DNA of 60,678 bases, filler included, from Platydemus manokwari (taxonomy: Eukaryota): the NCBI GenBank assembly GCA_037951405.1. It is 5 parts of 5 records of this genome, joined end to end, with 100 filler letters (N's around TTAATTAATTAA, not from the genome) between each part and the next. Parts side by side here need not be neighbours in the genome. Positions count along the whole stretch, not along the records: positions 29,164 to 50,318 come from JBBMOY011422533.1; 4 more parts are not named here. One strand, 5' to 3'. The notes below the pieces were generated by a model. That model saw nothing but the letters and a program-made list of their open reading frames with translations, did not search any database and was not told the origin of the DNA. This document shows, piece after piece, positions 7,271-53,700 of the stretch; position 1 is the stretch's first letter; every line of letters begins with the position of its first letter. The translations under genes and the position numbers were made by a program.

Positions 7271-9615
7271 GATAACGCATAAAAGGAACATTTATGCCTA
7301 GAATAAAAACATGTTGAAATTTATGGAGCAATGTTAGAAAGTGATTATATAGTACAATTAACGGGTAATGTGGGAGACATTGAATTGGTGTTAAGAAACT
7401 TCTGATAATTTAAACAGTAATGTGAGCTTTGCAAACAACAAATCCAAAAGTGTTAAATCAGTTAAGAGAAAAATTAAAGAAAGAAATGACTAAAGCCAAT
7501 AAGTTTATTCAATAAAATAAATATTGATTGAAGTAGGATATTGGTGAATCCGACACAGAATAAACACTGTAGCAATGCCCAAAGTGTAGATGTATAAATA
7601 TATAAAATGTATAATCTAAAAAAACACTTAATATTTTTGGTGCCTATGCCTATAATTGTCAAGTCATGTACAATTAAAAACTACGCTTTTGCTAGTTATG
7701 AAACAATTTTTATATGGATATTATACTCAAAATCTATCATTAATAATTACCTGAATTTTAAGTAATAAATCAATAAACATAAATCATTAAAAATATTTCA
7801 ATAAATATATCAGTATAGATAATATAAAAATAAATTATTATTCTTCTCTGATTTTTCAAATAAAATATTTTAATAATATTGGGATAAAAAATTATTATAT
7901 AGTCAAATTTTAACAGACAATATTGTAGATACATAATATAAAATAATCATTTGATAATTTTTATCTCCTTTATACCAATTTTAAATTGAAATGTTTTGTC
8001 TAATAATAAATATTTTTTATTGTAATGTTATTTTTAAAACAAGATGTAAATGCCTATTTTGATAATTGATGGTTTAAAAGAATATCTATTAAGTTCAGGT
8101 ACATGTCGTACTTACATGCATGCTGTTTCATTAAGAGACAGAACGAGAAAGAAAAAATTGACTCGCATGTATACAAAAAAGGTTGAAAAATATTGAAAAA
8201 TAAATCAAAATCGTCGAATAAATTCTGATACTAAAGATATAAAATTGATTATTTTTAGCATACATTTTTATAAAATCAACATTGTGTTGATAAAAATGCG
8301 AAATATTGTACAAAATTCATGAAATAAATATTTTAAAAATATATTTAAATGACTAATTTGAAAACAATGTTCGTTTTCGCTTAAGAAATTTATAAACTGA
8401 AATCAACCTAATTTTCATTATTACCAAATTTCCAAAATTAACTTAGATTAAGAAAAGGGTTTTTTTTACATAAAATCATTTGAGTGTACTTCTAAAAAAA
8501 TACACTTTACTTAATTATATTCATTAAAAATGTTTTGAACTTTTTATTGAAGTACCTAAAAGGAATTTTAATTCTTTGAAAGAAAAACATTAAATAAACA
8601 AAAGCTTTAAAATTAAAAAATTAATTTACAAAATTAAAAAACATATAGAAATCTAGAGATTAAAATAAGAACATTCTTTAAAATTTTTATTTTGCCCACA
8701 TTCAACATCTTATCTAGAATGCTATCAAGTAAACTCCATGATTAATCAAACATCCCAAAGTGTTAAAAATTTCAAAAACAAAACTAATTAAAAAAAAATA
8801 TTATTACATAAAACTTGTTGATATCAGAATTTCTTCTTATTTCCACCCAAAGCCATAGTAATAAACCCAGAGATAAAAATTACAAAAACTATTTCTTTAT
8901 TTTTAATTGACGATGGCTAAGACCAGATCAATCATTTATAATTTTTATTTTAGGTTTCATAGATACTTCCAAACTTCGGTTATCAATATGTCAATGTTAA
9001 TCATTCCATTTCTTTTATCAATCCCGGAATGATTTGAAACCATAGTAATGAAAAACAAAGCTCTTAATCATACACTTTTGTTCTAAAATTAAATTTTCGA
9101 ATAAAAATAAATTTTTGCATGAAATCTGAGAAAAATATATGTGAAATTAAATTATAAAAAGATTTTATATATAAAAATTCGTTATAATGAAATCGGATCA
9201 AAGAAACCATTTTCATAATTTAGGCCAATAATTTTAATTAAAACTGTTTGGCTTAAACTATAAAATGAGCTTCTTGTTATTTTTGTTTTAGCATTTTGAT
9301 TATCTAATTTTAGTAATAATTTTTATAATTAGAAGTTTATTTAGTATTTTTTTACTTTTCAGATAATTTATAAAAAATAAAAATTGAGATCTATTTTTGA
9401 GATAATTATTTTGCAGCCATTGATTCTGACACGCAGAGCTACTCTAAGTAATTTTGGAAAGTATTGCAGTAAAGCTAACTTTAACATAACTATCAACACC
9501 TTATATGGATGCAAAAATGCTTGTGATTTTCATTTAATTCAGAAAAATTTGAACATGCTTTGATAATGTCATATTATAAATTAATCTCTTATTATTTTCA
9601 TTGTTTATATAGAAT

Positions 9616-9715
9616 NNNNNNNNNNNNNNNNNNNNNNNNNNNNNNNNNNNNNNNNNNNNTTAATTAATTAANNNNNNNNNNNNNNNNNNNNNNNNNNNNN
9701 NNNNNNNNNNNNNNN
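9616..9715. other. Scaffold gap with artificial linker
   Basis: 44 N + TTAATTAATTAA (stop codons in all six frames) + 44 N. Confidence 0.98.
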
Positions 9716-12499
9716 ACCTGTTTTTGTGCGGTAGATAGGGACCGCAGAGACCTGATATGAAATTATTCTACATGATTACCGTCCTATTAATTTATTTTAA
9801 ACCACATTATTTAAAAAATATAATGAATCTGATAATAATATTATGAAATGAAAATTATAGAAGTATAGAAGTAATTCTTGAGATTAGTGTCTAAATAAAG
9901 AATCCTGCGAAAACACATGTATCATCTTTTGATTAAACGTTCATAGCTTTGAAAACATTGTAACTATTTGAAATTTTCTTCATTAATTTAATTCAAGATC
10001 AGTCCTAATAAATCTTTCGATCAATTTATTGCGAGAAACATTTTTCTTTTTTCATAAATATCGGTCAAATATTTCCATTAAGGTTTGAATAATATGGAAT
10101 AATAAGTGACACACGGGGTTTAATCAACCATCTGAGAGTTCTTAATATTTTCATTGGGTGAACTGTTGGTGTCGATATTAATATTACCATTTTATGATGA
10201 TTGTCTTCTCTTATTCATCCTACAAACTGCAATCCCACATGCTCTCTTCAACACTTAATTCGACACTAAAATCGGTGTACCTTTATTGTGCTCGTTCAAC
10301 TCAACTAATTTAGTCTAATCTCTCCCGTTTTATTGCATCAAAAATATATATATTTACATGAACTATACTAGTGAGAATTGTTTGCGCTTACATCACCATG
10401 GAAACATACATTTATTCAATTTAAAAATTACACGTTTTAAAATAATAAAATAATTATAAAAGTATTACAAAAATTATTTATAATTACATTTTAAACTTAC
10501 TCTGAGAAATTTTGTTTAAAATTATCAACAAACCGTAATAGTAATTGACGATTTTTAAAATTCGAGTTATAGTTTTTATGTCATTATCAAATGTGTAAAT
10601 TTTAGCGTTAATGGATTAATTATAAAAGAATTTAGCTTTTAATTTATCTGTTTGATTAATTTGCATTTACAAATTACTCAATCATTTTCGGTAGTGGAAA
10701 AATTATTTTACATATTATATATTTGATTTTTTTGTAACTCATTTTCATTAGCCTTTGATAGTTAATTTTTCATTTACGATTTATTAAGAGAGCGCGTTGA
10801 TTTTAAAATTGCTAAACATTGTCTGTATAAATGTGTGCCTTTTAATGATCATTTCGTAGCTAGAAATGAAAGAAAAATAAAAAATAATAATGAAAAAAAA
10901 ATATAAATTAAAGAAAAATTTGATAACAAATAATTATCATCCTTATCAAAATATCAAAAATAGATTAAACACCATTATTAGTCCGTCATATTATAGGGGA
11001 AATTTCATTAATTAATAAATCAATAAATTCCCCAAAGCTTTCCGGAATTTACGGCTACTTCAGTGATCGATTAGTAAAGTTTGATTAATATTAATCATGG
11101 AGGATTATTTATTGGGATAATAAAAGAGATGAGTGACAGATAGTCGTTTATTTTTCTATCGAAAGATAATGTCGACGATAAAGTGATAAAATATTCCATT
11201 GTTAAAGGTCGACTCACAAGCATGATTCTTTTGTTTCATGTTGCCACCAAACCAGCTGATCCTGCCTAAAGGCTTCAATAAATAAATGATCCGCCTCGTA
11301 CGTTGAAAAACAAAAGGAAATAATTTATGAAAGCGATGAAATTATCTGAATACTTAAACGATTAGCTACGACTGTATTACGATAATTAATAATTTAATTT
11401 GTCGAATTAAATTGTCAGATTAATTGTGAGCGTGTGTTGTTTTAATCAATAAAATTCTGTATAAAAAGAAACAGAAACTGCAATTCAGATAAAAATGTTG
11501 TAAATATAAATGGTGTTTCGTAATTTCTGTTTTTCTTATCAAATAGAATTTTTATTGGAATTTATCTTTTTCAATCAAAAAACGAAAAATTATTTTGAAA
11601 ATTTGAAATTGTTTTTGTCAAACGATGATGATCAAATGCGTTCTGCTTAGCTGTTGTTTGCAAATGTGAGACATGTTCGCAACTGATCACAAATCAAAAT
11701 AATCTCGCTATTATTTTAAAACTGGAGATGATACTATTTAAAGCATTGAAACAAATTATAAACAAATAGTCAGCATTAAAAAAAATTTTAAAATTAAAAA
11801 ATAAATAAAAAACTTATCAAGAATTTTCAATTTATTAATTTATTTTCAAATAAATTTTCATTAATCAATTTGTCGTGTTCTCGTTTTTTTATCAATGTTT
11901 GAAATAAAAGTCCGAGTTACCGTGCAATATTACGGGAAAATATATCTGAATTCTATTAATGCGTTAAGATGATTTTTCATTGGATTGATGAACGTGTAAA
12001 TGAATGTAGAAAATAAGCAGTTTAAGTAAAAGTAAAAAATAACGAAACATAAAGAAAAATAAAAATATTAATAAAAGAAACTTGAATTGTATAAATAAAA
12101 TAAAAATACAAAAATAAGTGATAATCATTACAGAAAATGAAAGGCTAGAAATAAAATATTTTTACTGTGATAATATATGTTTTATTAGAATATTTTTCAC
12201 GCATAAAATAATGTTTAAAATTTAAAATTCCAAAATAACAATTGCTTGATAGTAAAAAGATTGAAAAACAGGAACCTCGACCTTATAATATCTGGTCGTG
12301 TTCAATTAAAGGCATAAATGAAGGGCAGCACATGTTAGCCGCTACTGTTTTAAAATCTACACATTAAATGCGAACTGAAAAGTCAAGACACCACGAATCT
12401 ATTTAAAGAAATAAATGTAATTTTATATAAATATGATTTTATAGTAAATGGGAATTAAATAAGAATTACAATTTTAATTCATATAAAATTTAATCCATT

Positions 12500-18087: not shown

Positions 18088-18649
18088 TTACCATGGTTTT
18101 CCTTTTATAAGTGGTATTCCGAATATAAGAGGTAGCATGTTTCTTTGCTTGTAAAAAAATAAGCGGCCCTCCTCAGAACCCGCATATTCGTTGTCCGAGA
18201 TGTCATTTGACTTGGTTCTTGTCCTCGATAGTAATATAGTTTTCCCTTGGTGTAATTGCCATTGCTGATGTGCGGATTTGATGTTTGACCGTATCCAATC
18301 GTAACGTATTTTCTCCGATATGTCTTTTTGAAGCCAACTTTGCGTAGAATGATCTAGGTATCCGAATTCCAAGTGCCAAGAACGCCAATTATGAACGTAT
18401 AGAGCTCAACAGTCCAGCCTGGCCTGACTTTCTTTATTTCTTTTCGGAGATCATCGTACTTTGCTAAGTTGACTTCATCTGCATTTTTTATTAGTCGTTC
18501 CTCGTCCATACGGCATTTCACATCGACTAGAAAAATAGAGGTTGTTCGGTTACTTGTAGATCAACTCGCTGCTTTGATCCTGTGAATTGACAGGATTTCT
18601 CAACAAAAACATCATTTTCGGTGTGATTGTTAATATAGTTTGATAGTAA
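18088..18649 (-). mobile_element. 3' end of a non-LTR retrotransposon with restriction-like (REL) endonuclease (NeSL/R5/R2-type)
   Basis: Minus-strand translation VFVEKSCQFTGSKQRVDLQV / FLVDVKC.MDEERLIKNADEVNLAKYDDL...VELYTFIIGVLGTW matches the R(P)D...D...K..KY...G..G.W REL signature. Truncated by the gap. Confidence 0.75.
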
Positions 18650-18749
18650 NNNNNNNNNNNNNNNNNNNNNNNNNNNNNNNNNNNNNNNNNNNNTTAATTA
18701 ATTAANNNNNNNNNNNNNNNNNNNNNNNNNNNNNNNNNNNNNNNNNNNN
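18650..18749. other. Scaffold gap with artificial linker
   Basis: Same N/TTAATTAATTAA/N structure. Confidence 0.98.
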
Positions 18750-19820
18750 CTTATCGCCGAACCATATATTTAAATTTTAATTACAAATATAGAAATATTT
18801 AGAATAAATAAACAAGTTCGAATGAATTAAATGTTTAATAATAAATAGATAAAAATTTACCAAAATGTTGAAAATTAGACAATAATAAATGAATAAAAAC
18901 TATATTCAATAAAAATTTTGTTATACATTATCTTTTAAGATCAATAGTTTTTATCAGGTTTCCAAATATATTATTTAGAGAAAGCGTTTTGTGAGCTTTA
19001 TTGTGATAAACTTTTATGAGTTTGAAGAAACGATTAACAAATAATCATTTGAATGAATGTAAATGTTTAATGTAATATAATGATTTCTCTCTATTCTACT
19101 AAATATAACTGAACATATGATAGTAATTTTTACTATAATCATTTGTATTTTATTTTAATTTAATAATTAAATAAATTTTGATAATTTTATTATAATACTT
19201 ATTAATTGTTTCTAATGATGAATTTTTATTTTATGATTTACTGTGGATATTTTTATTGAAAAATTAAATTTTGTTTCTATATTATTAAAACATTTCTTTA
19301 CTTATTGTTTATAATTATGTTTTCTGCTCAAATGGCTTGAATTGTTCCCACAACATTTCTAACAGCAAATTTTATCACATCTTTAATAATAAATAATACA
19401 GAGTACTTTCGAAAATAACTCTTCATTGACTTCCTTTTCCTCCATAGTTGTGTAGCAATAGATCATAATAAAATTTTTTAGCAACATTAAATGTAGAATA
19501 ACAAATAATATGTATTATAAGTATTATAAATGGCATTGATATCAGGCTTTATCAAGGCCTTATAACCAGTAAAATAAAATCATCAAATTTTGAAGTTAAT
19601 TTGATAAAATTATCGCTTTAACCAATATTTTTAGTTATTTTGACATATATATTTGAAATAACCAAAATCATATAAACTCTGATGAATAAAATAAATATAT
19701 CAAAGCACAGTGATCGCATTTATTAATAACAGAACAAAAAAGAAGGAAAATCAAAGAATAAAACGTTTAGATTTTTATGTATATATTGGATACTTTGAAT
19801 TACTTCTTTCCAGATAATTT

Positions 19821-27763: not shown

Positions 27764-29063
27764 CGACGCAAATTTTTATTTAACTACAATTTCTCAAATA
27801 AATTGATATCTAAACAAATATAATTTTAAATTTAATAAAATTTCAATTCATTATAAATCCGAACATTCTTTCCTCTATAAAATCTTTGATTTTCTCTGAA
27901 TTCTTAATTATCCCCGCAGAAAAATTTCTAGATATTTATCTATATAAAAGTTTCTATATCTTCTCCACTCCATACCTTCCCTACATCTTCATATCTTCAC
28001 TTTTTCTTCTCTAAATTTTCTATACAGCTTCACTATATCTTCTTTACATCCTTTCTATATATTCTCTATATCTTCTTCCTCCTTTTATATACTTACATGC
28101 AATAGACTTTCTCAGAATCGAATCCAACTGTACGATCACTAAGTATTTTAAAAAACATGCATTGAAAACGAGCTGAAAAGTCAGGACACCAAATTGTATA
28201 TTTCAATGTAATTTTATAAACAAATCGGCAATCATGCACTGCCATCTCATCATCTTGTTTGTATAAAAAGTTTATTGTTAAAAATAATAATTCAATAATC
28301 AGTTGCTAACAGTATCAAATCGATTAACAACGCTGCACCCGACGAATCTCATTATAAGTTATAATTTATAGTTTAATATTATTTGCATAGCATAGTTATT
28401 AACGCCGCTCCAATAATCTTCAAATTATCGTTTAAGAGTCGAGACGAAACTAGATCAAAACGTGGGGCACAACATTAGAACTCATTGACACTGATTAAGA
28501 TGTTAGTACATCCAACCCATTGCATGATATAAAGTGAAAAATACTGATAAATAAATCCATGATTCTCAAATTCGTAAACACAGGCCTTACTTGAGTTAAG
28601 GTTTAGTTTGAAAATAGAAAAGTTATATATCGGTTTTCTCATAATATTATCGATTATTTATTCTAAAAAATATTATAGAAATATAATAAATTTCTCAATA
28701 AAAAGAAAACTTGAAAAATATCAAGAAATATAATAAATCGAAATAAATCAATATAAAAATCGAATTTATTCCTTTTATTGAATATTATTTCCATGAGAGC
28801 TTTTCCAGTAAACACTGTCATTCTATTAAAAACAGATACAATACAAGTACAGACCTCAATCAATTCTATAAGATACCTGTGTCTTATCTTATCATTATAC
28901 TCTCAATTGATTGATGGATATTTCATTACATGCAAAAGATTCACAATGATAACGATTAACCAATTATTGGGTTATTATCTAAATATTGATTGGTTATTTC
29001 ACATGTGTAATATTGGAATATAAAATAAGAATATTAATAATAATAATAATAATAACAATAATT

Positions 29064-29163
29064 NNNNNNNNNNNNNNNNNNNNNNNNNNNNNNNNNNNNN
29101 NNNNNNNTTAATTAATTAANNNNNNNNNNNNNNNNNNNNNNNNNNNNNNNNNNNNNNNNNNNN
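29064..29163. other. Scaffold gap with artificial linker
   Basis: Same N/TTAATTAATTAA/N structure. Confidence 0.98.
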
Positions 29164-29244
29164 AATTAATAAATGATAACAATTAAATTTATTCATTGAA
29201 ATACAAATTTTAACTCATTTTTGTAAAAGCCGGAATCATAATAA

Positions 29245-30591
29245 TACACCTAATATATTTCACGTTGTCGAAATAGAAGACTATACAGTGGATTTACGGC
29301 AATATGAAGGAACATTCGACATACACACTAAAGTTTGACGCAATAACCCACTTGTAACTCAACGCACAATAACTGCAAAATGGGTGGAGCAGTTTTAGTA
29401 TATCGAGCCAAAGTTACTGCGGAGTAGCATTCTTAAAGAGAACCAGCTTTACACCTATAAACGGAACAGCATGGGAAGACATACGGAAAAACGCCACAAA
29501 ATCACAAAAACACGATTGGATGGAAAGCTCGAGGAAGAAAGTAGTAAGAAAAGACTTACTAGAATCGTATTAATGTCGGTACAGCGATCTGATGCAGTTC
29601 AGCTAATCAGGGGAGCATCTAGAGATAAATGTGGAGTACTAATGTATGTAACGAACTATAAAGGCATCTATCTGAGTCAAAAAATCGCTAGAGATGCTGC
29701 CAATATTCATCAAGGCGATATCAAAATTTTGAGCTACTTAAATAACAAGATAGATTATCTCTACCATAATCTCCAGCTACAACTCACAGAAATCTACCAG
29801 GAAACGATACACAATAACTATAAAAGGGACAATGAAATCGTATGAAATAGTATGACATCTGCTTTAGCAAATCCCAATTTGATAAGGCCAGTTATCATGG
29901 AAAATGGTAGATACTGTAGAATAAGTGGCGAAGCTTTATATACATAAGAATGTGAAGCAATTCAAGTAACGGTAGCTCAAAGCATCGAATGCACAAGAGA
30001 ACTAGCGCTTCATTACGAAAACAAAAAGAGAGATATACGCACGTATTATTGAGAGAGGGGATGCCACACCGGCCAGTGGAGTGTAACCCATTCATATCTC
30101 CACTATACCAAATCGAAAGCAAATGGGTAACCATACCTGATCGACGACTTCCAAGAAACTATGACTAATTATTCACAGTAGATCATTTTAAGAAGGCAGC
30201 TTAGCACGTATGGGGACATTTCGCAGCTTTCGGGACATTAATTGCAAGCTGTACAGGAATCTATTTAATACCAATAATAATCAAAGTAGTTCATCAACTG
30301 ATAGCTACCTTCCACTTATTTCAAGTTTATGGAGTGTCATCAGAACTATTATTTGGATCATGCCCAAAATGTGCAAATCATGTATTACATAAACATTATA
30401 GAGAAGAGATTCAACTCGTTCTAAAACTCATCATTCAGAAGCATCAACTAGTAAGGGAAACACCACCCGAATGGTTACAAGGCTACTTTTCTCCTAGGTG
30501 TACTACGCCGAAAAACTCACCGTATAATTCCGATAATGAATCCGCATTTAATTCTGACGCAAAAGTAGTTTACAAACCAATTCGAACATAA
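29245..30591 (+). pseudogene. Chuvirus-G / herpes gB-like (class III) viral fusion glycoprotein, C-terminal half
   Basis: CGVLMYVTNYKGIYL...SYLNNKIDYLYH...LTEIYQE (ORF 29471-29845). Reading through stops: GRYCRISGEALYT*ECEAIQVTVAQSIECTRELAL / VECNPFISPLYQIESKW. Membrane region HVWGHFAAFGTLIASCTGIYLIPIIIKVVHQLIATFHLFQVYGVSSELLFG (~30205-30357). Cys spacing and the W..F..FG...K......YG.S pattern match chuvirus-type glycoproteins as recalled; no search was run. Confidence 0.8.
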
Positions 30592-30789
30592 GCACAACAA
30601 TCGAGGCTCACTAGAAAAATGTATAAGTTATTAGACCAAATGGACAAGGCTACAACATCCTAAGCCGAACCTATTACAAATAAAACGATGACTACTTATC
30701 CACTCGAGGAATTAAAGAAATTTGAAGAAGAAATCGTGGAAATTGACACCACGATGCAATGACAAAATCAAAATGGTTACAACCGAACG

Positions 30790-33700
30790 ACATTATATGG
30801 TTAACGAAGAAAAGGCATCTCAAAAATTGATACAAATACGAGTCAATCGACATATTGCTTTAGCACTAGTGGACACTGGCGTTGATTTCACTTTAATACA
30901 TCCGAGTATTCTTAACATATACTAACTACAAGGAATCGAAGAAACAAACATGACAATCACAGGCATCAACGGAAGTACCTTACCACTAATGGGAACGTTA
31001 AACTGTAAACTCCATTTATGTGGTCAAACAATAACAGTCTCTGTTAGAGTTTCTAAACTCTGTCTATATGACTGTGTAATAGGAAAAGACGTACTACGAC
31101 AGTTGAAAGGCATTATGTATGAATATATCACAGGATCACTCTTGAAAATAACTCGCAAGAAACGAAACAAAAGGGGAAAGTGTACCTGGCAAATGAAGAA
31201 ATTATTCCACCACGCACGGACGTCGTATGTTTTTCACAACCAGATACTGCAGACGATATTGAACTTTTATTCGAACCAAATACCCCATTCATGGAACAAA
31301 CTAGCATGCCGCTCAGTGCATGTATTGCAATAGTTAAAAACGGACAAATACCTGTACGCATAGCTAATATAACGAAAGAATCACTGAAAATATATGCAGA
31401 TACCAGATTAGGACAATTATCTGAGTATATTCTTGAGTCCCAAGAAAAACTTTTCCAAAATTATACAGGCCATTACAACCACAAAGCACGGACATTCTCT
31501 CGCAACAATGCCACCAATTGACACAACTACTGAATAAAAATGCCGAAGACTTTGTCAAACATGAACATGATTTAAGCAAATGCAATTTCATACAACATCG
31601 AATCGAATTAAATGATCCTCAGCCTATTTTCCAACGAGCATATCGCACAGATATAGCAATGGAATTCGAAATACAAGAAAAAGAAGGCACACTGCTCATG
31701 TGCATAGATTACCGAAAGGTCAATGAACAGACCAGGAAAGATAATTACCTACATCCACTCATTGACAAAATGGTGAATCGGGTGAGGGGAGCAAATATAT
31801 TTTCTACACTGAATCTCCAGACAAGGTATAACAATATTGAAATGTATGAGGATTCGATACTAATTACAGTCTTCACTGATGAGAAAGGGTTGTACGAATA
31901 CACAGTTATACTATTTTGACTCACCGGAGCCCCGGTAATTTTTCAACGTGCTATGAATATTATGTTAATAGATACACACCACGCCATGGTGTACGTTGAT
32001 GATGTTACCGTTTTCTCTAATAGTTTCGATGGACATATTCGAGATATAGAAGAAGTGCTGAAGAAAGTTTGCGAGACTTGTATCAAATTGAAGCCTACAA
32101 AATGTGAGTGGGAGAAAAAGGAAGTTAATTATTTAGGGCACATTATATCCGGATAAAGAGTCAAACCGGATAGAGCATATATTGCAAAAGTCGAATTGTA
32201 TTCCAAACCCAAAACGCTGCAAGTGGTTACGCCAATTGAGGAGTCCTAGGTCAAGTGAACAACAATGGGAACGAATATGCCATAGCATAAGTAAGCAGAG
32301 ACCTTAAGAGTTACCAAAAGAACTATACTGTTATTGAATAAGCGGCGTTAGCAATAGTCTACGTAGTAGAGCGGTTTTGAACTATTATCTACGGTCACAA
32401 GATACATGTGTTAACCGATCATAGATCAGTGGCTCTTAGAACATGGCGATACAGCGTCTCGATTAATTAGATGGGCGCTTGAACTTCAGGAATACAATAT
32501 AAAGATTTGCTAGTGAAGAGGCAAAACAGATGGGAACGCAGACGCATTATCCCGAGCAGATCCCACTAATTATGAAATAGATAATGATAATGTAATGCGG
32601 TCCATTCCTTGGGACAGAATGCAGATATTAGTCAATTACAAAAGGAAGATGAGGAAATAAGGAAATATTTGATGGACATAGATGATCTCTCACCAAGCTG
32701 GAGAAATTGCTAAATGATTGATAACCAAATTCCGAGTCCCTCATGGACAAACTTTATTCAAAAATAAAGGGATCAAATTGTACTTGAAGGCGATATTTTA
32801 AAATAGAAGACGCGGTCAGGCACACCATAATCGTACCACAATCGCTACAAAATACCTTGCTACTCCAGTATCATGATGGCACCTTAGTGGGCCACTTATC
32901 TGCAAGGAAAACGCATTTGCGGCTAAGACAGAAATATTTCTGGAGAAATATGAAAGTATATATAAAGAATTGGTGTGCATCTTGTAAAGTCTGCCAAACC
33001 CGTAGAAATACGGGACAAAAAGATAAAGTGCCTCTAAAGCCTATGCCACTGCCAAGTTCACCAATGAAAACCGTAGCAATTGATTTAATCGCTCCATTGC
33101 TTCTAACGAAAAATGGTAATAAATACATTTCGATCCTCTGTGATTACCTAACCAGGTGGCCGGAAGCATATGCAATTCCAGATCGAACGGCTAATACTGT
33201 GGCCGAATATTTGTCGAAGAAATAGTATACCGTTACGGTGCTCCAACGAAATTACTCAAGGACCGATGTACAGAATTTTTCAATAGTACATTGGATAAAA
33301 TTAATCGTATTTTTAAAATAACAAAGCTTAATACTTCACCATACCACCCTCAAACCGACGGGTTGGTCGAGAGATTCAACGGTACTCTCACAAACATGTT
33401 AACATCCTGCACAAGCACAGGCCAAACAGATTGGGATGTTCACATCTCATCTTGTCTATTAGCATATCGAACTTCTGAGCAATCCAGTACGGGCTATACA
33501 CCATTTTATTTAATGTATTTACCGCATAGTCACATGCCTGTAGACATTACAATTTACTCACAGTTACATGGACGAGGAAGACTATGTAGTAGTCATGAAG
33601 GAACGATTAACCATCGCATGGCATAAGGCAAATCTAAACGTCCGTTATAGACAAGAACAAATGAAAGACACATAAGATACAAATAAAAAGGATCATACTC

Positions 33701-33990
33701 TACGAATAGGCGATAAAGTCATGCTTGAAAGCAAAGCATGCAAAAAGGGAATCTCGCTCGAATTAAGTCGACCTTTCAAGGGCCCTTACATTATCGAGTG
33801 AGCTAGAACACTAACTTTGTAATTAGACCAGATGGTAAAACATCTACGGAGCCAATATCGGTACGTGCTACGAAGAGACTAAAAACAAGCAATGACCTCG
33901 ACAACAGATAATACAACAAGGAAATTATCAGGTAAAAACAAGTAGAAAACAATGCCTGACAGCTATGGGGACATCAATACCCTTTAAGCT
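30790..33990 (+). pseudogene. Ty3/Gypsy pol pseudogene: PR - dUTPase-like - RT - RNase H - integrase
   Basis: ALVDTG and CVIGKD (PR); IPPRT...IPVRIAN...RLGQL (dUTPase-like, 31180-31430); MCIDYRKVN and VYVDD (RT); KNYTVIE...VLTDH (RH); HD...GH...CASCKVC, AIDLI, YHPQTDGLVERFN, GPY (IN). The RT-RH-IN order identifies Gypsy. Confidence 0.95.
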
Positions 33991-33995
33991 TACAA

Positions 33996-35000
33996 ATGTT
34001 TACACTAACACTAATTTGTATTCTTACATTAGCCAACGCTCAAATAGAGACACGTTTACCAATTATCCGACCTATGTTTACATACAATTGGGGAAGTTTT
34101 TGGGTAAGCATAATTGCTCATTAAGACCCTTCACAATTTTATAGTGTAGCGTTAATACGAAATTACCTTTGCCTAAAGACAGCGCAATTTACTCATCAAC
34201 ATGTATCATACAATTAATTTTATATCGACATGTTAAATACCCGAAACTCGACAGTTACATAATAACTGAGCATGATAATATTAGTATACAAACATTACCG
34301 TTTGAGAAAACATAGCATATATTTTACAATGATAGTATCATACGCATAACAAAGGAACCTAGTAACCACAATAGAATTATAGGATCAATAGCCGATGGAA
34401 CTGAATTGGATTTATTTGTTTTAATGAGTGGAATTCAAACCCAATACGAACATAGACGAAGAAACCTAGAGTTAAAGTTACAAATCAAGGACACTATGCA
34501 CCACAAGCAGACACCCAAACATTGAGTCAAACAAAATTAACTACAAATCGTACTACTAAAATAAATATACACGCGAAATGGAAGATTGAAGCAGTACCAT
34601 GATCATTTTCATCGGTTCGTGCTTCATCTTTCAATCTATTTTCCAACCAATTGTTGTACTGATATTATGCAAAATTAAATGAACTAGAACTTATTTTCCT
34701 AATTAACGATATCGAAACTATCCACCTCCGTATCAAATGACTGACCTAATTTTTCTCTTTATAGATATGAAGCTACAGCAGTGTAGACCTAAAATGAGTA
34801 TCCGTATTTATAAATCATTATCTATATTATATAGTAAACAAACATTATCTCTACTATCTTCCTGGCATGCCATAATAATACTCTCAAATATTATTCCACT
34901 ATGCCTATTAATCATTTCCATAGTAGATAAAAGATCCTATATCTTATTACGCTATGCCAAAAGCGAGCAACCAATTCCGATTATCAGTTCCTACGATTAA
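33996..35000 (+). pseudogene. Unknown post-integrase membrane/glycoprotein ORF (ORF3)
   Basis: Signal-peptide-like MFTLTLICILTLANA|Q at 33996; NST/NDS sequons; hydrophobic segments MIIFIGSCFIFQSIFQPIVVLILC (~34600) and HAIIILSNIIPLCLLIISIV (~34870). Interrupted by stops. Confidence 0.5.
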
Positions 35001-35029
35001 GAACCGATCCTCACAATTTCAGCATCTTA

Positions 35030-36343
35030 ATGACAAAAGAAGCAGCAATTTCAAATCGATCTATCTAATTAATTAAAGTTCGGGAGTAGAGGTCCTGGCG
35101 TAACCACAGAACTAAACATTGATGAACCCGGCAAGCATGCAATCAGCAAAATCTTTCATTATACTCGACGTGCTCACACCAAAGAGAGAATCTATCTTTA
35201 TACCACGGATACGCTCGTAACGGCTTACATCGCAGGCGTGCAAGAACCGTTACGGTTAGATAAAAACACGGTCTTAGATATTCAACAATGTGATAAACGC
35301 TTATATCACGGGCATATCGAATGTCCACAGGTACCCACAACTTTAGTAATGGAAATAGGTTAAGATGATATTTTCAATATCCTCAGCACAGCCCACGAGG
35401 AATATGATTACAGAGCTACCCTAGCTGATATCAGCAAATATTTATCATTCACAAGAGCCGACATGAGACTGGAAGACATCAGAAAAAGACTTTTATTTAT
35501 TGCAATTCGAACAGTAACGACGGCACCATACCTTCAATCCCGAGAAATTATGTATGGCACTGGCAAAAACGAGTTTCTGAAGCAGACATCATCCACCAAT
35601 GAGATGAAGTGTCCTGCATAAAACAAGTTAATCAACTTGAAGACAAACATATTTTAGTTGGCTTCAAAGTAGCGGATATGTTAGACACATTAAAAATCCC
35701 GTCCCTGCGTCTTCTAGGTATTAGAGACCTTGCAAGAGCAAAGTGTTTGGAGAATTACGGCGTAGCACAAGCCAGCCAGCTAAAATTCTCAAAAATCCTT
35801 CGAAAAGTTATACCGAATTTCAAACATGGAAAACTACACGAACTTAAAACTACAAAGATGCCCGAGGAAATTTGAGCCATTTACCTACAAATCGAAGATC
35901 AATAGAGAGATCGCTTACCACCTAAAGAAACAATAACAATCAGAACACAGACAAACCTATACCCATAAGCACGGAAATTATCCCAAAATTAGTAGAAGCA
36001 TACAAAGAGCCTAGCGCACCACCAATGGAGGTGGAACAAATTCATCTTATTGACACACAGTCACAAGTCACTGCCAGTGACCATCCACATCAACACAACG
36101 AATCCCTAAATTTCTTAATGTCGACATCGATGCAGAAGAACCACCCAATTTGCCAAAACATATATATGAAGCAATTACATATGAGCACATGACAGTCATT
36201 CAATACACATGCGAGGGGACCTTTGAAACTACGAGATTACAATTCAGAAATAGACACTGGAAGTCAGGAAACCCAAGAAACCCAAACGAATGGACGATGA
36301 CGTCGAAGACAAACCGAAACTAATGATCGACCTTGACGAATGA
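35030..36343 (+). pseudogene. Unknown soluble ORF (ORF4), possibly SGNH/GDSL-esterase-like, with a PSAP motif
   Basis: Long near-open frame 35073-35620 (one stop), continuing by frameshift into ORF 35609-35875 and an acidic/Pro-rich tail with EPSAPP at 36007-36024. Confidence 0.45.
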
Positions 36344-36623
36344 GGCTCAACCAATACAACATACTATCGAACATTTGATATCTATATCCAATTATGTGGC
36401 ATTTTAAAACATTTTATACGTGACAGTTCTATCAGATTGTGTGACGTTTTATGATATTTTATTGGTAAACAGTACTTGACATTATATTATTTTATTCATG
36501 TAATATTTTATTATGGTGATTGACATCGTTGACTATGAACTCTCTATCATTTTTATGAACGTATATTGTAATTATATTGTATTAGATCCTAAGTACCTTG
36601 TCTGCATCTTATACGTATATCTT

Positions 36624-36700
36624 ATTTTCGAGGTCGAAAATCTTTAAGGAGGGGGAGATAATGTGGAATCCTACCTTACCTGAGACATTAAAATAAAACA
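36624..36700 (+). other. Pre-PPT hairpin, polypurine tract and start of a truncated 3' LTR
   Basis: attttcgaggtcgaaaat hairpin, AAGGAGGGGGAGA (36646-36658), TGTGGAATCC at 36662, then AT-rich host-like DNA. Confidence 0.8.
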
Positions 36701-37330
36701 TATGAACAAATATATACAAGAATAAAAAAATTTAAAAAAACATTAAAAATTTAAATTTAAAAAAATTTTACTTCTGACAGAAAAAATAAAACAAATAGAA
36801 TTCAAAATTTTTTAAAAAATTATTAAAAATAAATAAAACAAAATTTTGTTTATCTATAACAAATTCTTTTGTTTAAACGAAATCAAGGTCAACCAGATAG
36901 GACCCAAGGTCAAAAGAAGAAAACATATTCAAATATATTTCAGATACATTACCTTATGAATTAAATGATTACTTCTTTAAAAAATTTCGTCTGAATATAT
37001 AATCAGAAAATATCTAATTCTAAGAACTTTGAAGTAAATAAAAAGGTTAAAAGGATCCAATTTAGATATAACATTTAATGGTAAAACAATCACTATTATA
37101 GAAAAAAACGTAATTAAATCTCTATATAACATTTGTGTTATTAATTTTATGCTGCCAATAGTTTTAAAATGAATCCAAAAGAATTTTTGAAACTTGTACA
37201 AATAATTATAATAAATATTCGATTGCTATAAATTAGATTTTATTGGGTTTTCACTCATAACGCGTCCATTATATTGTTTTGCATTTTTAATTGGTATCAC
37301 AACATGTCCACATTTTTATTTTTAATTAAG

Positions 37331-39057
37331 TGCTTTTGATTCTTGTGGTTTTGAACATGTTTTTGTGGGTGAATTGAAAGATAACAAGATAATCGGTTTA
37401 CACAATTGGATACAAATTTATCTACAAGAAAAAGCTGGAAATATTGATTATAAAGGATTTTTAGATATTGGAACGGTTAGTTCTCGATATTAAATATTAA
37501 TAAGATTATGCCAACATTGAAAATGTATTATGTTAAGTTTAGAATATTTGTTTAAAACAAAGATGATTTATCGATCTGTTTAATTGATCATTAAGATTCT
37601 ATTAATTTGCATAAACCTTGTAATTGTATTGTTGAAACAGATTTTTCAATTTTCCTTTACTTGTAAAATATGTTTTATCAAATATCTATTTTTTAGCAGA
37701 AAGATTCCAAATTAATAAACCCAAAATATATTTAAAAAGCATGGAAAAAGAAATGAACAAAATCGATTATCGATTAAGATTTCTAATAATGCAATGATAT
37801 TTTATCAAGAATGATCAAGAAAAGTACACAATCTAATGAGTACCATTTAAGTTGAAAAATATGTGAACACTATTGAGCTTGTTGAATAATTTTCAGAAAA
37901 TTAAGAATTCTCATTGAAAAACGAGAATTTCCTGAACTGAAAAATGTCTGAAGATTGAAACAAAAAAGTTCTTTAGCTAAAAGTAAGAAAAAGTAAATTT
38001 AAATAGTTTTATAAAAGAAATATGGAAGAAATTGTGGTCAATGAAATTATGGAAAGTAAGCCGAATAGATACCCAATGATATTAAGAATAGCTTCTTGAA
38101 TGAGCTTTGTTAAAAGAATGAAAAATTTGAACACAACAACACATTTAAATCGAAAATATAAGTTGAATAAACACACAAACGCAAATCTAGCTCCACTAAT
38201 TTTGATTTGGAGAAAGTGACGAAAAATTAAGTCAAAAATCACTTATTAACGCCCAATAGGCATTTTAAAAAATTTAAATCATTGCAGTAATAAACATTGT
38301 TGTGAGGAAATTTTAAATGAACAAATTGAATAATAATTTAATACAAACATTAAATATGTTGTTTCGATAAAATATATTTTGAGATTTTGTTGAATTGTTA
38401 AAAGTTTTACTGAATTATTAAAATTTGTTACTAAATTATTAAAAGTTAATATTGCTTGATTAAGATTAGCAGGACCTTTAATTCTGGAAATGGGTTTAAA
38501 AATTATGCGATTTATTAATAAATAAATAAGTTAAGAAAATGGTGATAATGACTTCTTTTGTTGAACCCTCAAATTTAAGCAAAGTAGCTACTACTAACCA
38601 ACATGTTTATATTTTTTACTATGAAAGAACTTTGCATTATTCGAATCCAAATGCGAATACACAAAATTGATATAAATGCTTTAACTTACCATATTTCTCT
38701 AAGTAGTAATATTCTCTGCTAGAAATTTAATTATATTAATGATAAATTTTATTGATTTGATATTTGATTTTTAACTTAATTAATATTTTGAAAATTTATA
38801 CTTTTATTAAGTCAAACGAACCCGATTCTCCCAGAATAATTACCATACAATTCACTTGGAAAGATGGCAGTTTGAAAGCAATGGGTAGTTCATTTGTCGG
38901 TACATCTCCGGAGTTTGAGATGGCTTTGTTTACCGCTTTATATTTCTGCGATGTAGAAAATGAATCCAATTATCAAATTGATAAATATCGTCTTAATCTA
39001 GTTCATTATAAAATGGGTGATCAAGTAGGAACTGCTTACATTGAGGGATTGGATTAG
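37331..39057 (+). CDS. ENDOU: EndoU/XendoU uridylate-specific endoribonuclease, paralog A (last two exons only)
   Basis: Exons 37331-37475 ([12 protein letters not shown]...[18 protein letters not shown]) and 38812-39057 ([26 protein letters not shown]...VGTAY). His-His-Lys triad intact; GT-AG sites. Confidence 0.9.
38450..38600 (+). repeat. Dispersed repeat, copy 2 (see 21860-22020)
   Basis: Shared blocks as listed for copy 1. Confidence 0.7.
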
Positions 39058-40544: not shown

Positions 40545-43500
40545 TTAATCCCAACACTTAATGTATGAGGATTTAATTTTGTTTGGTATTTTGTAACAAT
40601 ATAAACTAAGATTATAAACAGCCATCTTAAATCGATCATTTGAGTTAACATTACAATAGAAAAGAGCTGTGTAAAATGCAATTTCAAATTCCGGTGACGT
40701 TCCAACGAATGAGCTTCCTTTTGGTTTGGATTGACCATCTTTCCAAGTGAATTTTATTGTGATTACTCGAGGATTATCGGATTCTTCGGACTGAAAATTA
40801 AATAAATCACTCATTAAATAATACTTACACATGTTCAGAATGTAAATATTTTTTAAAAGATTTTGTAAGAAATGAAAAGTTTTAAATTTATTCTCCAGAA
40901 AATCTAAGCTAACAAGATACTAAGATAATTGGTGAGTTATTTGGCAAAACAAATCCAAGTCAAACAGGTAAAATGGGTTACAAATTCTATTAGATAGATC
41001 ACGAGAAAGTAGTTTTCTGATAAAAAATATAAGCTAGTAAATCTTCAATCATGCATTCGGTGGACAACCCCCATGCTAGAAGAAGAGGAAACTAATCTTC
41101 AACAATTAGCCAAACTGAGATATCCTCATACAAATTATATTAAACGAAAATCTATGAAAATTATACCAATGTAACTTGATGAAGCCCTAATCTACTAGAG
41201 AAATTTCTCAAAACATTAATATCAAAATTAAATTATTTATTACTGAGAAATCGCCAAAGGAGTTTAAAGATCATCTGATAAAAATGTGAAAGTTTAAAGA
41301 AAAATAAAGAAAACAACATGGAAAAATTAAAATACAAATTTACAAGAGCAATTTAAAATTGGAAACAAATATTATATCAAAGAATAAATAAATAAATTAC
41401 TGTTCCTAAATCAAAAAATCCCTTATAATCGATATTGCCATTTTTTTCTTGAAGATATATTTGAATCCAATTATGTAATCCGATAATTTGACCATCTTTT
41501 AACTCGCCGACAAAAACATGTTCAAAACCACACGAATCAAGTACACTATATATGATAAATGTTATTTCATATATAAATACAATAGACGAAAATTATGCTC
41601 AATTCTATGAAGGCAATGAAGTACATAGATTTTTAATAAAAAGATATACTTTAATATTATGTAACCAAACATATTGCTGGGATGAACCATATGTGTTTAT
41701 TCAAAATAATTATAGTAAATATTGTTTATCAACATTTATAAATATATGAATTCAATCTAGCTTTTTAGTCTTGTAAGTTAATCAAAGATTCATTTAGAGA
41801 TTTTAGATACGTATTCGCTTATAGAATATGTGCATAAATTCGTGCGGTTATATTTGTCGTAAAGAAAACACACCGATTTCTTGTTATAACTGATTTGAGT
41901 TATATTCATTCATCTGCATTATTGATTTAAATTATTTTAGACTAACTTTCACTTTTATTACTCTCATTAAAATGAATTGTGACATAGATATAAATGAACA
42001 TTTCCGGCATCTACTCCTTATTGTTTTAATCAACATTTAAACAATCTTTCTGGTTTCGCATTTCAAAACGAAGAATTAATAACAAGGTGGATTGAAGAAT
42101 TTTTCGTCCAAAAACCGCCAAGCTTCTTCAAACGTGGTATTGACAAACCACTGATTGAGACTGAGATATTTGTTTTTTCTAATAATTTCATAAGTTCATG
42201 TTATTATCTGGAATTTTTTGCATGGATTTTATTCTTGATCAGTATGCATTTTTCATAAGTGTAAAAAAACCGCACGAACTTATACACCAACCCAATATTT
42301 TGAAATGATCTGAATATCTCTTACTTTCCACGCTTGTACATTTCAAACCAAATTTTCTTCAACTCCTTTTTGAAATGATTTCTGATCGGAGATACCATTT
42401 GATGATCGGACAAGAATTTATGAAGAATTTTCATTACTCTTGTGTCCAATATTGCATTGAGAAAGTCATCATGTTCTCTACTTTCTTCATTTGTAATAAA
42501 ATCAGGAATTCCAATTTGCATTTCATAATTATCGAGCAATTTCCGAAATACTAAACAAATAATGATAAATCAGATAGGAGTTTTTTGACAAATAAAATCC
42601 TTCACTATATGAGTAATTATCGGATTGAGAATAAACATTGATATTTATCATGGAAGTGTAAATTATAATGTCACTTTTAATTTATTTTAATTTAATTATA
42701 TTTAACGGTAATTATATTTAATGCCCACTTGGCTAAGATGCAAGCAAACATATAATGAAATGATGTTCTATGTTCCAGTCAATTGATAAGTTGTATTCTA
42801 TATAATATTATGAAGTAGCCCAAGCATTTACATAGTGGAGTATAAAGGACTATCACAAAAACATCTCATTTTTAAAAAACCCATTTAAATTTGAATAGAT
42901 ACATACACATTTTCATGCACTCACTTTGACCAATCAGAAAAAAGGGGAATTTTAAATATTTAAATTGAACATACACAAAAAGTTGTTTAATATTCAATCA
43001 TTTGATGATTGAATTCCGGTTTAATTGATAAAACAGTGGAAGGCAAGGACAATGTGAGTAATCTATTCAGAGATTAAATCAAAGTTGCACACAGAGCACT
43101 CGAGGTCTCATGATATTGAGAACCACTGTAGTGGATTTGGGCAATGTAAGGAATCTCAAAAATGTCGTATCTCAAGAAGATGGACTGAAAACAACCAATG
43201 AAAGATTAATTTTGCAACGCTTCACAGCATAGTTCGAGTTCCAAATGAAAATGAGAAACTAAGAAAGAAGTTTCAGGTGAAAATAATTCATAAAATTTAT
43301 TTAGCTTTAGAAATCAAGGAACAGACTATGATAATTTTTTGCCTCAATAAAGGAAAAATAGAAAAGAAAAAACAAAAATAGAATCGATACCTATATAGAA
43401 GAAAGCAGCAAACGAAACTTTTATACAACTATATAACGCAAAACGAGGAGTGTTTATCAAGAGGCAGACCATGCACGCATTTCCATCAGCCACTCAATTA

Positions 43501-50013: not shown

Positions 50014-50318
50014 TCTATTTTCGAAACAAACTTGTGATTATGTAGTTTACATTATATAATTTATTGTTAATTAATAGTCAAGATATTATGTGCTGCTATT
50101 TCATAAAATACAATTTTAAAACGAATGAACAATAACATTTAGCCAAAACATTTGAACAAACTATTTAAAGATTTTTTATTTATTTTATTGGGTCTATAAC
50201 TTAATAACCGGAATTTGACACCAGATGTAAACACTTGTGTGTGTGTTGTAGCAAATCATTAACATACACGTCATTTTGAAGCTCTATTCATAAGCTATCA
50301 AAATCAGTCAACATTGTT

Positions 50319-50418
50319 NNNNNNNNNNNNNNNNNNNNNNNNNNNNNNNNNNNNNNNNNNNNTTAATTAATTAANNNNNNNNNNNNNNNNNNNNNNNNNN
50401 NNNNNNNNNNNNNNNNNN
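50319..50418. other. Scaffold gap with artificial linker
   Basis: Same N/TTAATTAATTAA/N structure. Confidence 0.98.
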
Positions 50419-50793
50419 ATTTGTTTAAATACTATATATTTGTACAATCTTTTGAATTAATAAATATTAATATTTACTAATCTTTATCACAAATTTAATA
50501 ACATGTATTTTTCTTGTTGACTTCTAAATATCGTTTTCAATACACATTTATAAAAATCGTAGAAGCTAATAAGTATTAAACAATAACAATTATATATTTT
50601 TGTCAATTATACATTATTTCTTTTATAAAATTTTACTGAAGTAGTGATCAATTAGATTAAAAACGATAAAAAACTAAGTTGCAAATAATTCATAAGATAA
50701 TCGCTAAAAAATAATTTTTAATGATAAAATTGACTGCAAATTTACAATGAAAGGAGAATCACAAAAGAAAGTTATAAGATCTAGTGTCAAATA

Positions 50794-53700
50794 TTAGGAA
50801 CACAATTTAGCAAAGCATTCCGTACAATAAGGCAGGTTTTTACTCTCTTTAAAAGTACACTTTGCAAGGCTCTTTAAACAATAACTACAGGTGAAACACT
50901 GTACGTGATACTTCTTCCCCAATGCATTTACCAAGCTGGTAGTAATTGGTAATTTGCACACTCCACAAATCTTTCCCATTTTGACATGGTAGTGCTGAAC
51001 ACAATATGGTTCTCCATCTATCTCATGGAAATTGTACGTTTCAAATGGCTGTTGACAATCCTAAATTCGGAAGTTAATTTATTCGAATAAAATCAAAATA
51101 TTTTAAAAATTATTTTCATAAAATTACTATATTTAGTAACATTTAGAATTTTTGTAAACTTCGAATTTCAAGATACTTATTGTAAATTAATTTTCAAAAC
51201 AATTTGCCTTATAAAGTCAATGATATTAAAGATATGACTGCCAAAGACATGATTATAGAAAAATAATCAGTTCTATTAAATATTAATTTGTAGGGCAAAT
51301 AATTCTCAAGAAAATTTTAAATATAAATTATCCCTCCATCTATTTCAACTAATTGGTTTTATTTTTTTTCTGAAAAACTTTTAGAAAATCATTAGCTACT
51401 TGATTAAATAACTTAAAAAACAATTAGTTAGGCAGCAGTCAAATCGTTTTGTTTCTTTGCATATTTCCATTAATTTCATAAAGATAAAAGCATCAACGAA
51501 AGGAACATAATAGTTATATATATATATCCAAAGGAGTGGCAATCAAATTATAAGTATTATCATATAATTTCTCAGTAAGATCGTTTATTTGTAATATTAA
51601 GGCACCTAACATAAAATCAGAGCTCATGATAAACATAAAAATTATGCTGTTCCACTTAGTCATCTGTAAGCGGAAATTTAGAGCACTGAATCAGAAAATG
51701 AGAATGGCGCGTTAAATATATAGACATAATATATGCATTAAAATTTATATCATAAAAGATATTTCACTATACCGTGCAAACGAAACATTGATCATGCCAT
51801 TTCTGACCCATTGCACTTAAAAATGTAGAAGTGATAGGATTTTTGCAACCGGCGCAACGCGATCCAAAGAGGTCGAAATAACATTCACTAAATACATGAG
51901 CCAATGAAATGTTAACTGTGATTATTGAAACTTACGAACAGTACGGTTTATGTAGATGTTCATGAAATCCGACTTCATCAAAAGGAGCTTGACATGATGT
52001 ACAGAAAAAATGCTCCGGATGCCAATGTTGGTCAAGAGCTGTTAAAGAAGTCTACAAATAACAAAAGAGTTATTATATGGAATTTTCCATATATATACAT
52101 ACATATATATATATATATTTCCATGCTATGTGAACTAAATTCTTTATATTAAATAAAATATATGAGAGTTTATTAAAATAAAAAAAATTAATTGGCTGAA
52201 AACATTAATAATATTTCAAGGTTAAAATAATATCTTTCAATAATATCAATAATGAAAGGCCAAGATAATAAATCATGCCAGACCAATAAAAATATTAAAC
52301 TAATAAAATAATCATAAAATTTCTGAACTTCGTGGGAAATCATACAATTACTTTCGAGAACAAGGAATGTAATTGAAACAATTGATATCTTCACTTACAA
52401 TATCAAATAACCAAAATACTGTCAGAATGATTCATGATAATGGATATAAATATGCTATTTAGTGCAAATCTCGAACGAAAACGAAGACCAATTGAATTCA
52501 AGTGAAACTGACCTAACGAATTGTGATAAGGTTGTAATCGCTACCAGTGAATATATACCGGGATTGTGTCGATTGGAAACTGGGAATTGAATGATCTTAA
52601 AAAGTGTGATCTTATAGATCTAACAATTGACACAGATGCAATTATATTTAAAATATTTGTTCATATAATTGCATTGTAATTGAGGAAACTGTTCTCGAGT
52701 TTCACTCTCCTTCATATTTTGATAAATTATTGAACGAAATTAGCGTATCAAATAGGTGTTTATAAAATAAAGTGTAAAAGAGATAAATACCGGAAATGTA
52801 TCGTCGATCGAATTATTTAATTGGTTAAGTCCTGAAATTTATATCGAATTCATAAGCTGGGTTAATGCACAGTTATAATCAATATACAGAAACTACACAA
52901 CACACGCACACGCACACACACATATATATACATAGCAAATAATTCTCGTAATATAAATAAATAAAATTTTATTATAATATTCATATCATAAACAAATTTA
53001 ATGTGAAAATTCTTTTAGTAACCGATTTGAATAAAGGCAATTTTAATGACATTGCCTAAAGACAAAATCATGGGATACATTTCCAATCAAATTATAATTG
53101 GAATTACATTTCAAATCAATCCATCAGATAATAATAATTGGGAAAAATATCCCATCAAAAGCTTTGATCTCAACTTAACCGACTCAAATAAAATCGAAAT
53201 GTTTTACTATTTTATACTTTATTTTATTGATTTTTATAAATAAATATATTCAATATTAAATTATCAAAAATAATAATTAATAAATAAATTACAATCAATA
53301 CAAAATATCGATTTTATCCGTTAAAAAAAATATTTCAATCTCGCGAAGACGGGAAAGCATTTGATAGGATCACGATAGTACAAATTTAGATAAACAATTA
53401 CAATAATAGAGCTTTAATGAATGGATTGTTTGGAGAGTTTTGCAGTGGACAAGGAAATACACAATACTCAGTCACATGAACACATCAATCTAAAATATAA
53501 TAATGCAATCTATTATTCTAATTTTCAAAATTTAACTCAATACAACGGACAATAGATTAGTTATTTTTGTTTTTTGTTGATGTGTAATCGATGTTGTCAG
53601 GGAAATATCAATGGAAATCAAGTCTAAACGCTCAAATTTCATTTTTCCAATTTGATAGAAAATTCCGAAAAAATCAAAATATTTTTCGATTCATTTCATC

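Follow-up and report, generated by a model that had tools for sequence, protein, structure and literature searches.

A decayed gB-type envelope gene ahead of a broken gypsy-type pol: probable remnant of a GAG-ENV-POL retroelement in a flatworm genome

For the Ty3/gypsy elements of flatworms, nematodes and bryozoans, the main text of Chary & Hayashi (eLife 2026, PMC13524379) describes only an HSV/gB-type ENV, carried in GAG-ENV-POL order, and this glycoprotein resembles chuvirus G. A chuvirus-G-like glycoprotein family is also carried by BEL/Pao elements according to the same text, and its supplement holds nine flatworm elements, six of them from Schmidtea mediterranea. The Burro/GYPSM1 elements, as described in the text of Arkhipova & Yushenova (2019, PMC6431247), are giant LTR retrotransposons of dugesiid planarians; in Burro an env with matches to mononegavirus fusion proteins lies in frame between gag and pol, a dUTPase-like domain sits between the protease (PR) and the reverse transcriptase (RT), and decaying copies are found in Dugesia japonica. 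An env placed before pol and encoding a gB-type glycoprotein is already published for flatworms, and the locus described here adds one dead copy.

The window analysed here is a stretch of 60,678 nucleotides, filler included, from Platydemus manokwari (assembly GCA_037951405.1), in which five parts of the genome are joined by runs of N. The runs at 9615–9723, 18649–18757, 29063–29171 and 50318–50426 contain an identical short spacer; they are a joining artefact, and a reading as a biological repeat was rejected. The base composition is AT-rich, with 21–33% GC in most 1-kb bins; between ~30 and ~36 kb there is a block richer in GC and in A. On the plus strand lies what is in all likelihood the remnant of a Ty3/gypsy LTR retroelement, dead and lacking its 5' end, of the Burro-like type with the order GAG-ENV-POL. 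The host is likely to be a planarian, on the indirect grounds that the closest env with a name comes from S. mediterranea and that the base composition is AT-rich. The copy has the following features.

~29220–30420, plus strand: decayed HSV-gB/chuvirus-G-type env (class III fusogen), from Pfam PF24664, the frame map, tblastn with relatives and fold searches
~30211–30340, plus strand: membrane-proximal block and transmembrane (TM) segment of env, from the C-terminal PF24664 match and the motif
30421–30775, plus strand: env tail or linker reaching the protease, interrupted by stops and a frame change, from translation and tblastn with relatives
30776–31120, plus strand: aspartic protease with ALVDTG and one stop (Pfam RVP, E = 1.5e-7)
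31165–31476, plus strand: conserved spacer domain between PR and RT (18–35% identity to the same region of relatives P0005, P0011, P0017, P0146 and P0148)
31488–32228, plus strand: reverse transcriptase with YVDD, two stops and an internal loss relative to the relatives (Pfam RVT_1, E = 7.7e-21)
32201–32561, plus strand: RNase H (RH), broken by stops and frame changes (Pfam RT_RNaseH, E = 1.1e-17)
32794–33800, plus strand: integrase (IN) in three frames, with an H2C2 zinc finger, a core and a block that we take to be GPY/F-like (Integrase_H2C2, E = 1.1e-19; rve_3, E = 1e-4)
33996–36350, plus strand: decayed accessory coding region after the integrase, ~2.3 kb, from translation
36646–36663, plus strand: polypurine-tract-like run followed by TG, read directly; probable start of the 3' LTR

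With stops read as X, the plus-strand segment 29195–30046 matched positions 244–408 of the PF24664 profile (Monjiviricetes_fusion) with an E-value of 4.3e-15 and 55.1 bits, and the segment 30052–30771 matched positions 534–608 with an E-value of 4.7e-10 and 38.5 bits, both in excess of the curated cut-off of 27 bits. The second match aligns at ~30190–30410 and includes the W..F..FG block together with a hydrophobic run that corresponds to the C-terminal membrane anchor. When a profile of 10 close relatives was run against six-frame chunks of the window, three chunks matched, every one of them in the env region and none elsewhere in the parts of the window scanned. The env remnant is real homology, far above chance level. 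The original prediction, made from the sequence alone, had named three motifs in this region, and all of them were located: YLNNKIDYLY at ~29735–29764, GE...C..I.V......C..EL at ~29927–30004, and the W..F..FG ... K ... YG.S block beginning at 30211, with spacings that the prediction had given loosely. It had placed the gene at 29245–30591, of which the part up to ~30420 lies within the homologous region and 30420–30591 is tail or linker.

Decay by stops and frameshifts, also predicted, is evident both in env and in the adjacent pol. The homologous frames of env contain five internal stops, and the profile of 10 relatives, which aligns from ~29250 to ~30420, switches frame four times (near 29340, 29405, 29545 and 30035). 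Near 30150 about 67 codons have been lost without a change of frame, which takes the alignment from profile position 464 directly to 532; tblastn with relatives shows this jump too. The first ~160 profile positions, corresponding to the N-terminal part, are missing where env adjoins the N gap at 29064–29163, and of the near-invariant cysteine columns several survive, whereas at least one does not. Among the sequencing runs listed, one contains the stretch, possibly the source sample, and none is of RNA. This copy of env is unable to make a working protein, and all of the pol domains downstream of it are broken too.

The fold was assessed on an AlphaFold2 model of the X-read env core, computed with a 93-row alignment. 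The model has a pLDDT of 76 and a central helix of 38 residues, values that depend on the alignment of relatives and, with the query partly out of frame, reflect the family more than the copy at hand. A search of BFVD gave 14 matches at E ≤ 1e-3, the best at 6e-7; 13 of them carry names, and every named one is a negative-strand RNA virus glycoprotein, in most cases chu-like. Foldseek against the PDB gave no match at E ≤ 1e-3 (best 8.9e-3); herpesvirus gB accounts for 37 of the 38 rows among the matches listed, and the remaining row is baculovirus GP64. With VIA-align, four gB chains came out on top with Z-scores of 5.6–7.0 over ~200 aligned residues, the best of which is below the distinctive level of the tool, and ranks 1–8 are solely gB or rabies G. 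The top rows in all three structure libraries are gB or chu-like G, in keeping with a gB-like fold that has a PH-like domain, a long central helix and a crown. The predicted chuvirus/gB-like class III fusogen is borne out by matches of both sorts, to the PF24664 profile and to fold neighbours in BFVD, PDB and VIA, and the methods agree on class III for the modelled fold, although the scores are modest.

A phmmer search with the env glycoprotein (G) against 1.84 billion representative proteins returned 142 matches at E ≤ 1e-3, 22 of them at ≤ 1e-10, and 20 were picked by rank or length for a domain scan (relatives are referred to by P numbers). PF24664 is present in 19 of these; P0032 is a false match. 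A protease follows G within one open reading frame in 10 of the 20, five of which also have RT and RNase H, and G follows the integrase in none of the 20. Gag-type domains precede G in P0019, P0006 and P0038, and a weak Bcl-2 match was found among the scanned relatives. The cluster members P0146 and P0148 are complete G-PR-RT-RH-IN polyproteins, the latter with ankyrin repeats, and in the intact P0005, P0146 and P0148 G has a hydrophobic segment on either side, placed as a signal and an anchor would be. One phmmer match has DUF5641 before G; DUF5641 and Peptidase_A17 are markers of BEL/Pao elements. A word-indexed homolog search with a piece of G among longer proteins found nothing in 932 candidates, and a search of viral contigs for relatives of P0003 gave 12 pattern matches, none of them confirmed. 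Two properties of the relatives were observed in passing. P0005, P0006, P0012, P0019 and P0148 have two to six aspartic-protease DTG motifs per polyprotein, some after the integrase, an unusual duplication. The record P0011 (HBK71150.1) is a retroelement polyprotein with complete env and pol; it is annotated as a hypothetical protein from a Flavobacteriaceae MAG and probably stems from a contaminating animal contig.

The pol region reads, in order, RVP, RVT_1, RT_RNaseH, Integrase_H2C2 and rve_3 in Pfam, a gypsy-type PR-RT-RH-IN arrangement with env positioned upstream, a placement that the original prediction had not given. The spacer domain at 31165–31476 had no Pfam match at E ≤ 0.05. No gag or LTR was recognised between env and protease (30421–30775), and a gag remnant or zinc knuckle there was rejected as a candidate, none being recognised by translation or Pfam. 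Upstream of the N gap at 29064–29163 the window gave no match to gag or env. No LTR pair was found in the window, the stretch at 36646–36663 having no second copy there. The accessory region begins at 33996 with what resembles a signal peptide, is hydrophobic near 34620 and again near 34870, and holds an almost uninterrupted frame at 34980–35618 and further coding-like pieces up to 36350, including a PSAPP motif near 36010 that we take to resemble a late-domain motif; over 33996–36350 there was no Pfam family, no homolog among 508 candidates and no PDB sequence match. Another decayed gypsy remnant, more distant and comprising RT, RNase H and integrase, lies at 5367–6708 on the plus strand.

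Other parts of the window hold features of different kinds, host genes of the EndoU and LIM families among them. Two EndoU (XendoU) paralogues face each other at ~37329–39057 on the plus strand and ~40545–42569 on the minus strand, with exons 37329–37482 and 41394–41547 that are 81% complementary. A LIM-domain exon at 50794–51060 on the minus strand, which is presumably paxillin-like and perhaps goes with 55495–55848 on the same strand, has two relatives at 72–74%. The segment 48714–49141 on the plus strand looks to us like a mariner-type transposase remnant; a Pfam scan of it found nothing.

By tblastn the window is colinear with the polyproteins of the relatives from G through IN. The RT is 41–45% identical to those of P0005, P0011, P0017, P0146 and P0148 and 34–39% identical to those of P0022 and P0046. 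For the IN core the identities are 61–65% to P0005, P0146 and P0148, 49% to P0011 and 49–50% to P0022 and P0046, and the G of P0022 and P0046 is also more distant from the window G. The membrane block of env lies 219 codons from the protease, a distance that is 130–390 codons in the relatives in which the motif was found, 10 out of 12. Phylogeny, which the original prediction had proposed as a check, gave a concordant placement. In a G-core tree computed by a quick method with midpoint rooting (126 rows, 170 columns, after 20 of 146 core matches shorter than 125 residues were dropped), the window falls among the rows with G before protease and is separated, by a split with SH-aLRT 99, from DUF5641-linked G and from named chuvirus G, the latter being a single row on a long branch.

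The window G was also compared with rows of the PMC13524379 supplement, in cells searched to 400 characters, where short window env motifs were found only in S. mediterranea (Smed) rows. A count by eye over four chosen gap-free stretches, which covered two of the six Smed elements, gave 49 of 96 residues identical to Smed_errantivirus_4 and 41 of 96 to Smed_errantivirus_1. Because G and pol share their closest relatives, and because G resembles the published planarian errantivirus ENV, the sequence comparisons support an env inherited within a known lineage rather than newly captured. The original prediction had left the choice between independent capture and ancient inheritance in a Gypsy lineage; it is inheritance in an old lineage that these comparisons favour.

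It is improbable that the order of the genes is an accident of tandem elements, in which a deletion joined the env at the 3' end of one gag-pol-env element to the pol of the next. The N gap does hide the 5' side, and between env and protease there is a stop and the reading frame changes, but env followed by protease is found inside single reading frames in half of the scanned relatives, G and pol indicate the same relatives, and no LTR remnant was recognised at the junction. Still less probable, and largely refuted, is that a glycoprotein was captured independently and recently from a chuvirus (Jingchuvirales), or that an endogenous chuvirus element came to lie beside a gypsy element by chance. 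The best named structural neighbours are indeed glycoproteins of chu-like viruses, and chuvirus G integrations adjoining gypsy fragments are reported for arthropods (PMC10084718). The nearest relatives of the window G, however, are retroelement polyproteins or unlabelled fragments with E-values from 1e-28 to 1e-13, whereas the one named chuvirus G reaches only 8e-8; the tree separates the two, the spacing between env and protease agrees with that of the relatives, and the flanking frames scanned contain no nucleoprotein or L-protein Pfam family. A stand-alone chuvirus integration was likewise rejected. That the copy is a BEL/Pao element of the Anakin type whose env is chuvirus-like has next to no likelihood, since for all that this superfamily carries a chuvirus-like glycoprotein family and one match has DUF5641 ahead of G, the pol profile is gypsy-type as had been predicted, no DUF5641 or Peptidase_A17 was found in the window frames scanned, DUF5641-linked G is on the opposite side of the tree, and env precedes pol here whereas it follows pol in the BEL/Pao type.

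Taking the locus as a dead GAG-ENV-POL gypsy copy, its active form, to judge from intact relatives, would have made a single long polyprotein. Its gag and accessory parts would lie in the cytosol, an internal signal peptide would send the gB-type ectodomain into the ER, and a transmembrane anchor would bring the chain back to the cytosol, with PR-RT-RH-IN to follow; cleavage by signal peptidase and by the protease of the element would separate the products. As a trimer, the class III glycoprotein would then cover particles as they bud and make them fuse with cells nearby. By this analogy with the relatives we infer the polyprotein processing and particle fusion, as well as a gag and a 5' LTR that are missing from the copy in the window.

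In four intact relatives the same polyprotein continues past the integrase (P0005 ~2486–2745, P0011 ~2259–2565, P0146 ~2592–2905 and P0148 ~4363–4730). A hydrophobic segment resembling a signal peptide is joined there by the motif C..L.P.T.Y and another hydrophobic segment, and the tail is rich in proline. The motif occurs in these four of 11 proteins checked, and P0022, likewise full length, is without it. For two of the four modules the atlas returned fibronectin-III clusters at 0.92, with recognition values of 1560 and 1905 that are below the 2300 mark. Pfam fn3 was not found in the four modules, pairwise similarity among them was not significant (best E 0.027), and the structure prediction for P0145 has a pLDDT of 30.7. 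The window region to compare is 33996–34700 on the plus strand, which has the position and the hydrophobic outline of the module; a profile of the four modules run against the window ranked this region first at a non-significant E of 0.31, and a shorter unit profile ranked it second at 0.86, also non-significant. Herpesviruses have separate binding and fusion proteins. As a tentative and rather unlikely reading, the module of the relatives might be a second surface protein, with a signal peptide, a fibronectin-type-III-like ectodomain and a TM segment, that acts as putative attachment partner of the gB-type fusogen, and 33996–34700 may be its remnant. If so, the elements, having an attachment protein of their own next to the fusogen, would resemble complex enveloped viruses, and the protein would offer a handle on the cells entered. 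No published description of the module was found in a literature search or by keywords in the main text of PMC13524379; the figures and supplements of that paper or the original Burro description may have it.

Compared with described systems, the window shares with the Platyhelminthes GAG-ENV-POL errantiviruses, as presented in PMC13524379, a Ty3/gypsy pol and a gB-type env before it, and Smed_errantivirus_4 (cysteine configuration C1a) is especially close, the likeness lying in env domains I–II. It differs from them in being dead and 5'-truncated, so that it would fail the intactness filter used in that paper, and in having ~2.3 kb of unassigned coding sequence after the integrase; the words fibronectin, FN3, accessory and polyprotein do not occur in the main text. 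With Burro/GYPSM1, as described in the text of PMC6431247, it has in common an env before pol and an additional domain that separates PR from RT, and its relatives carry ankyrin and Bcl-2-like domains; the spacer at 31165–31476 sits at the place of the dUTPase-like domain of Burro, a likeness of position only. The env-pol fusion of Burro is in frame, whereas stops and a frame change separate env from protease in the window, and the giant size, LTRs, gag and MATH/BIR/BCL2 domains of Burro are beyond what a truncated copy can show. The G of chuviruses (Jingchuvirales) and the env of mosquito BEL/Pao elements of the Anakin type (PMC7642597, PMC10084718) belong to the same PF24664 family and have the same class III fold as the window env. 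They are nonetheless distant from the window env (named chuvirus G at E ≥ 8e-8) and on another branch of the tree, and the Anakin-type elements are of another superfamily with another gene order. The window copy fits the published view of a gB-type env inherited together with a gypsy pol.
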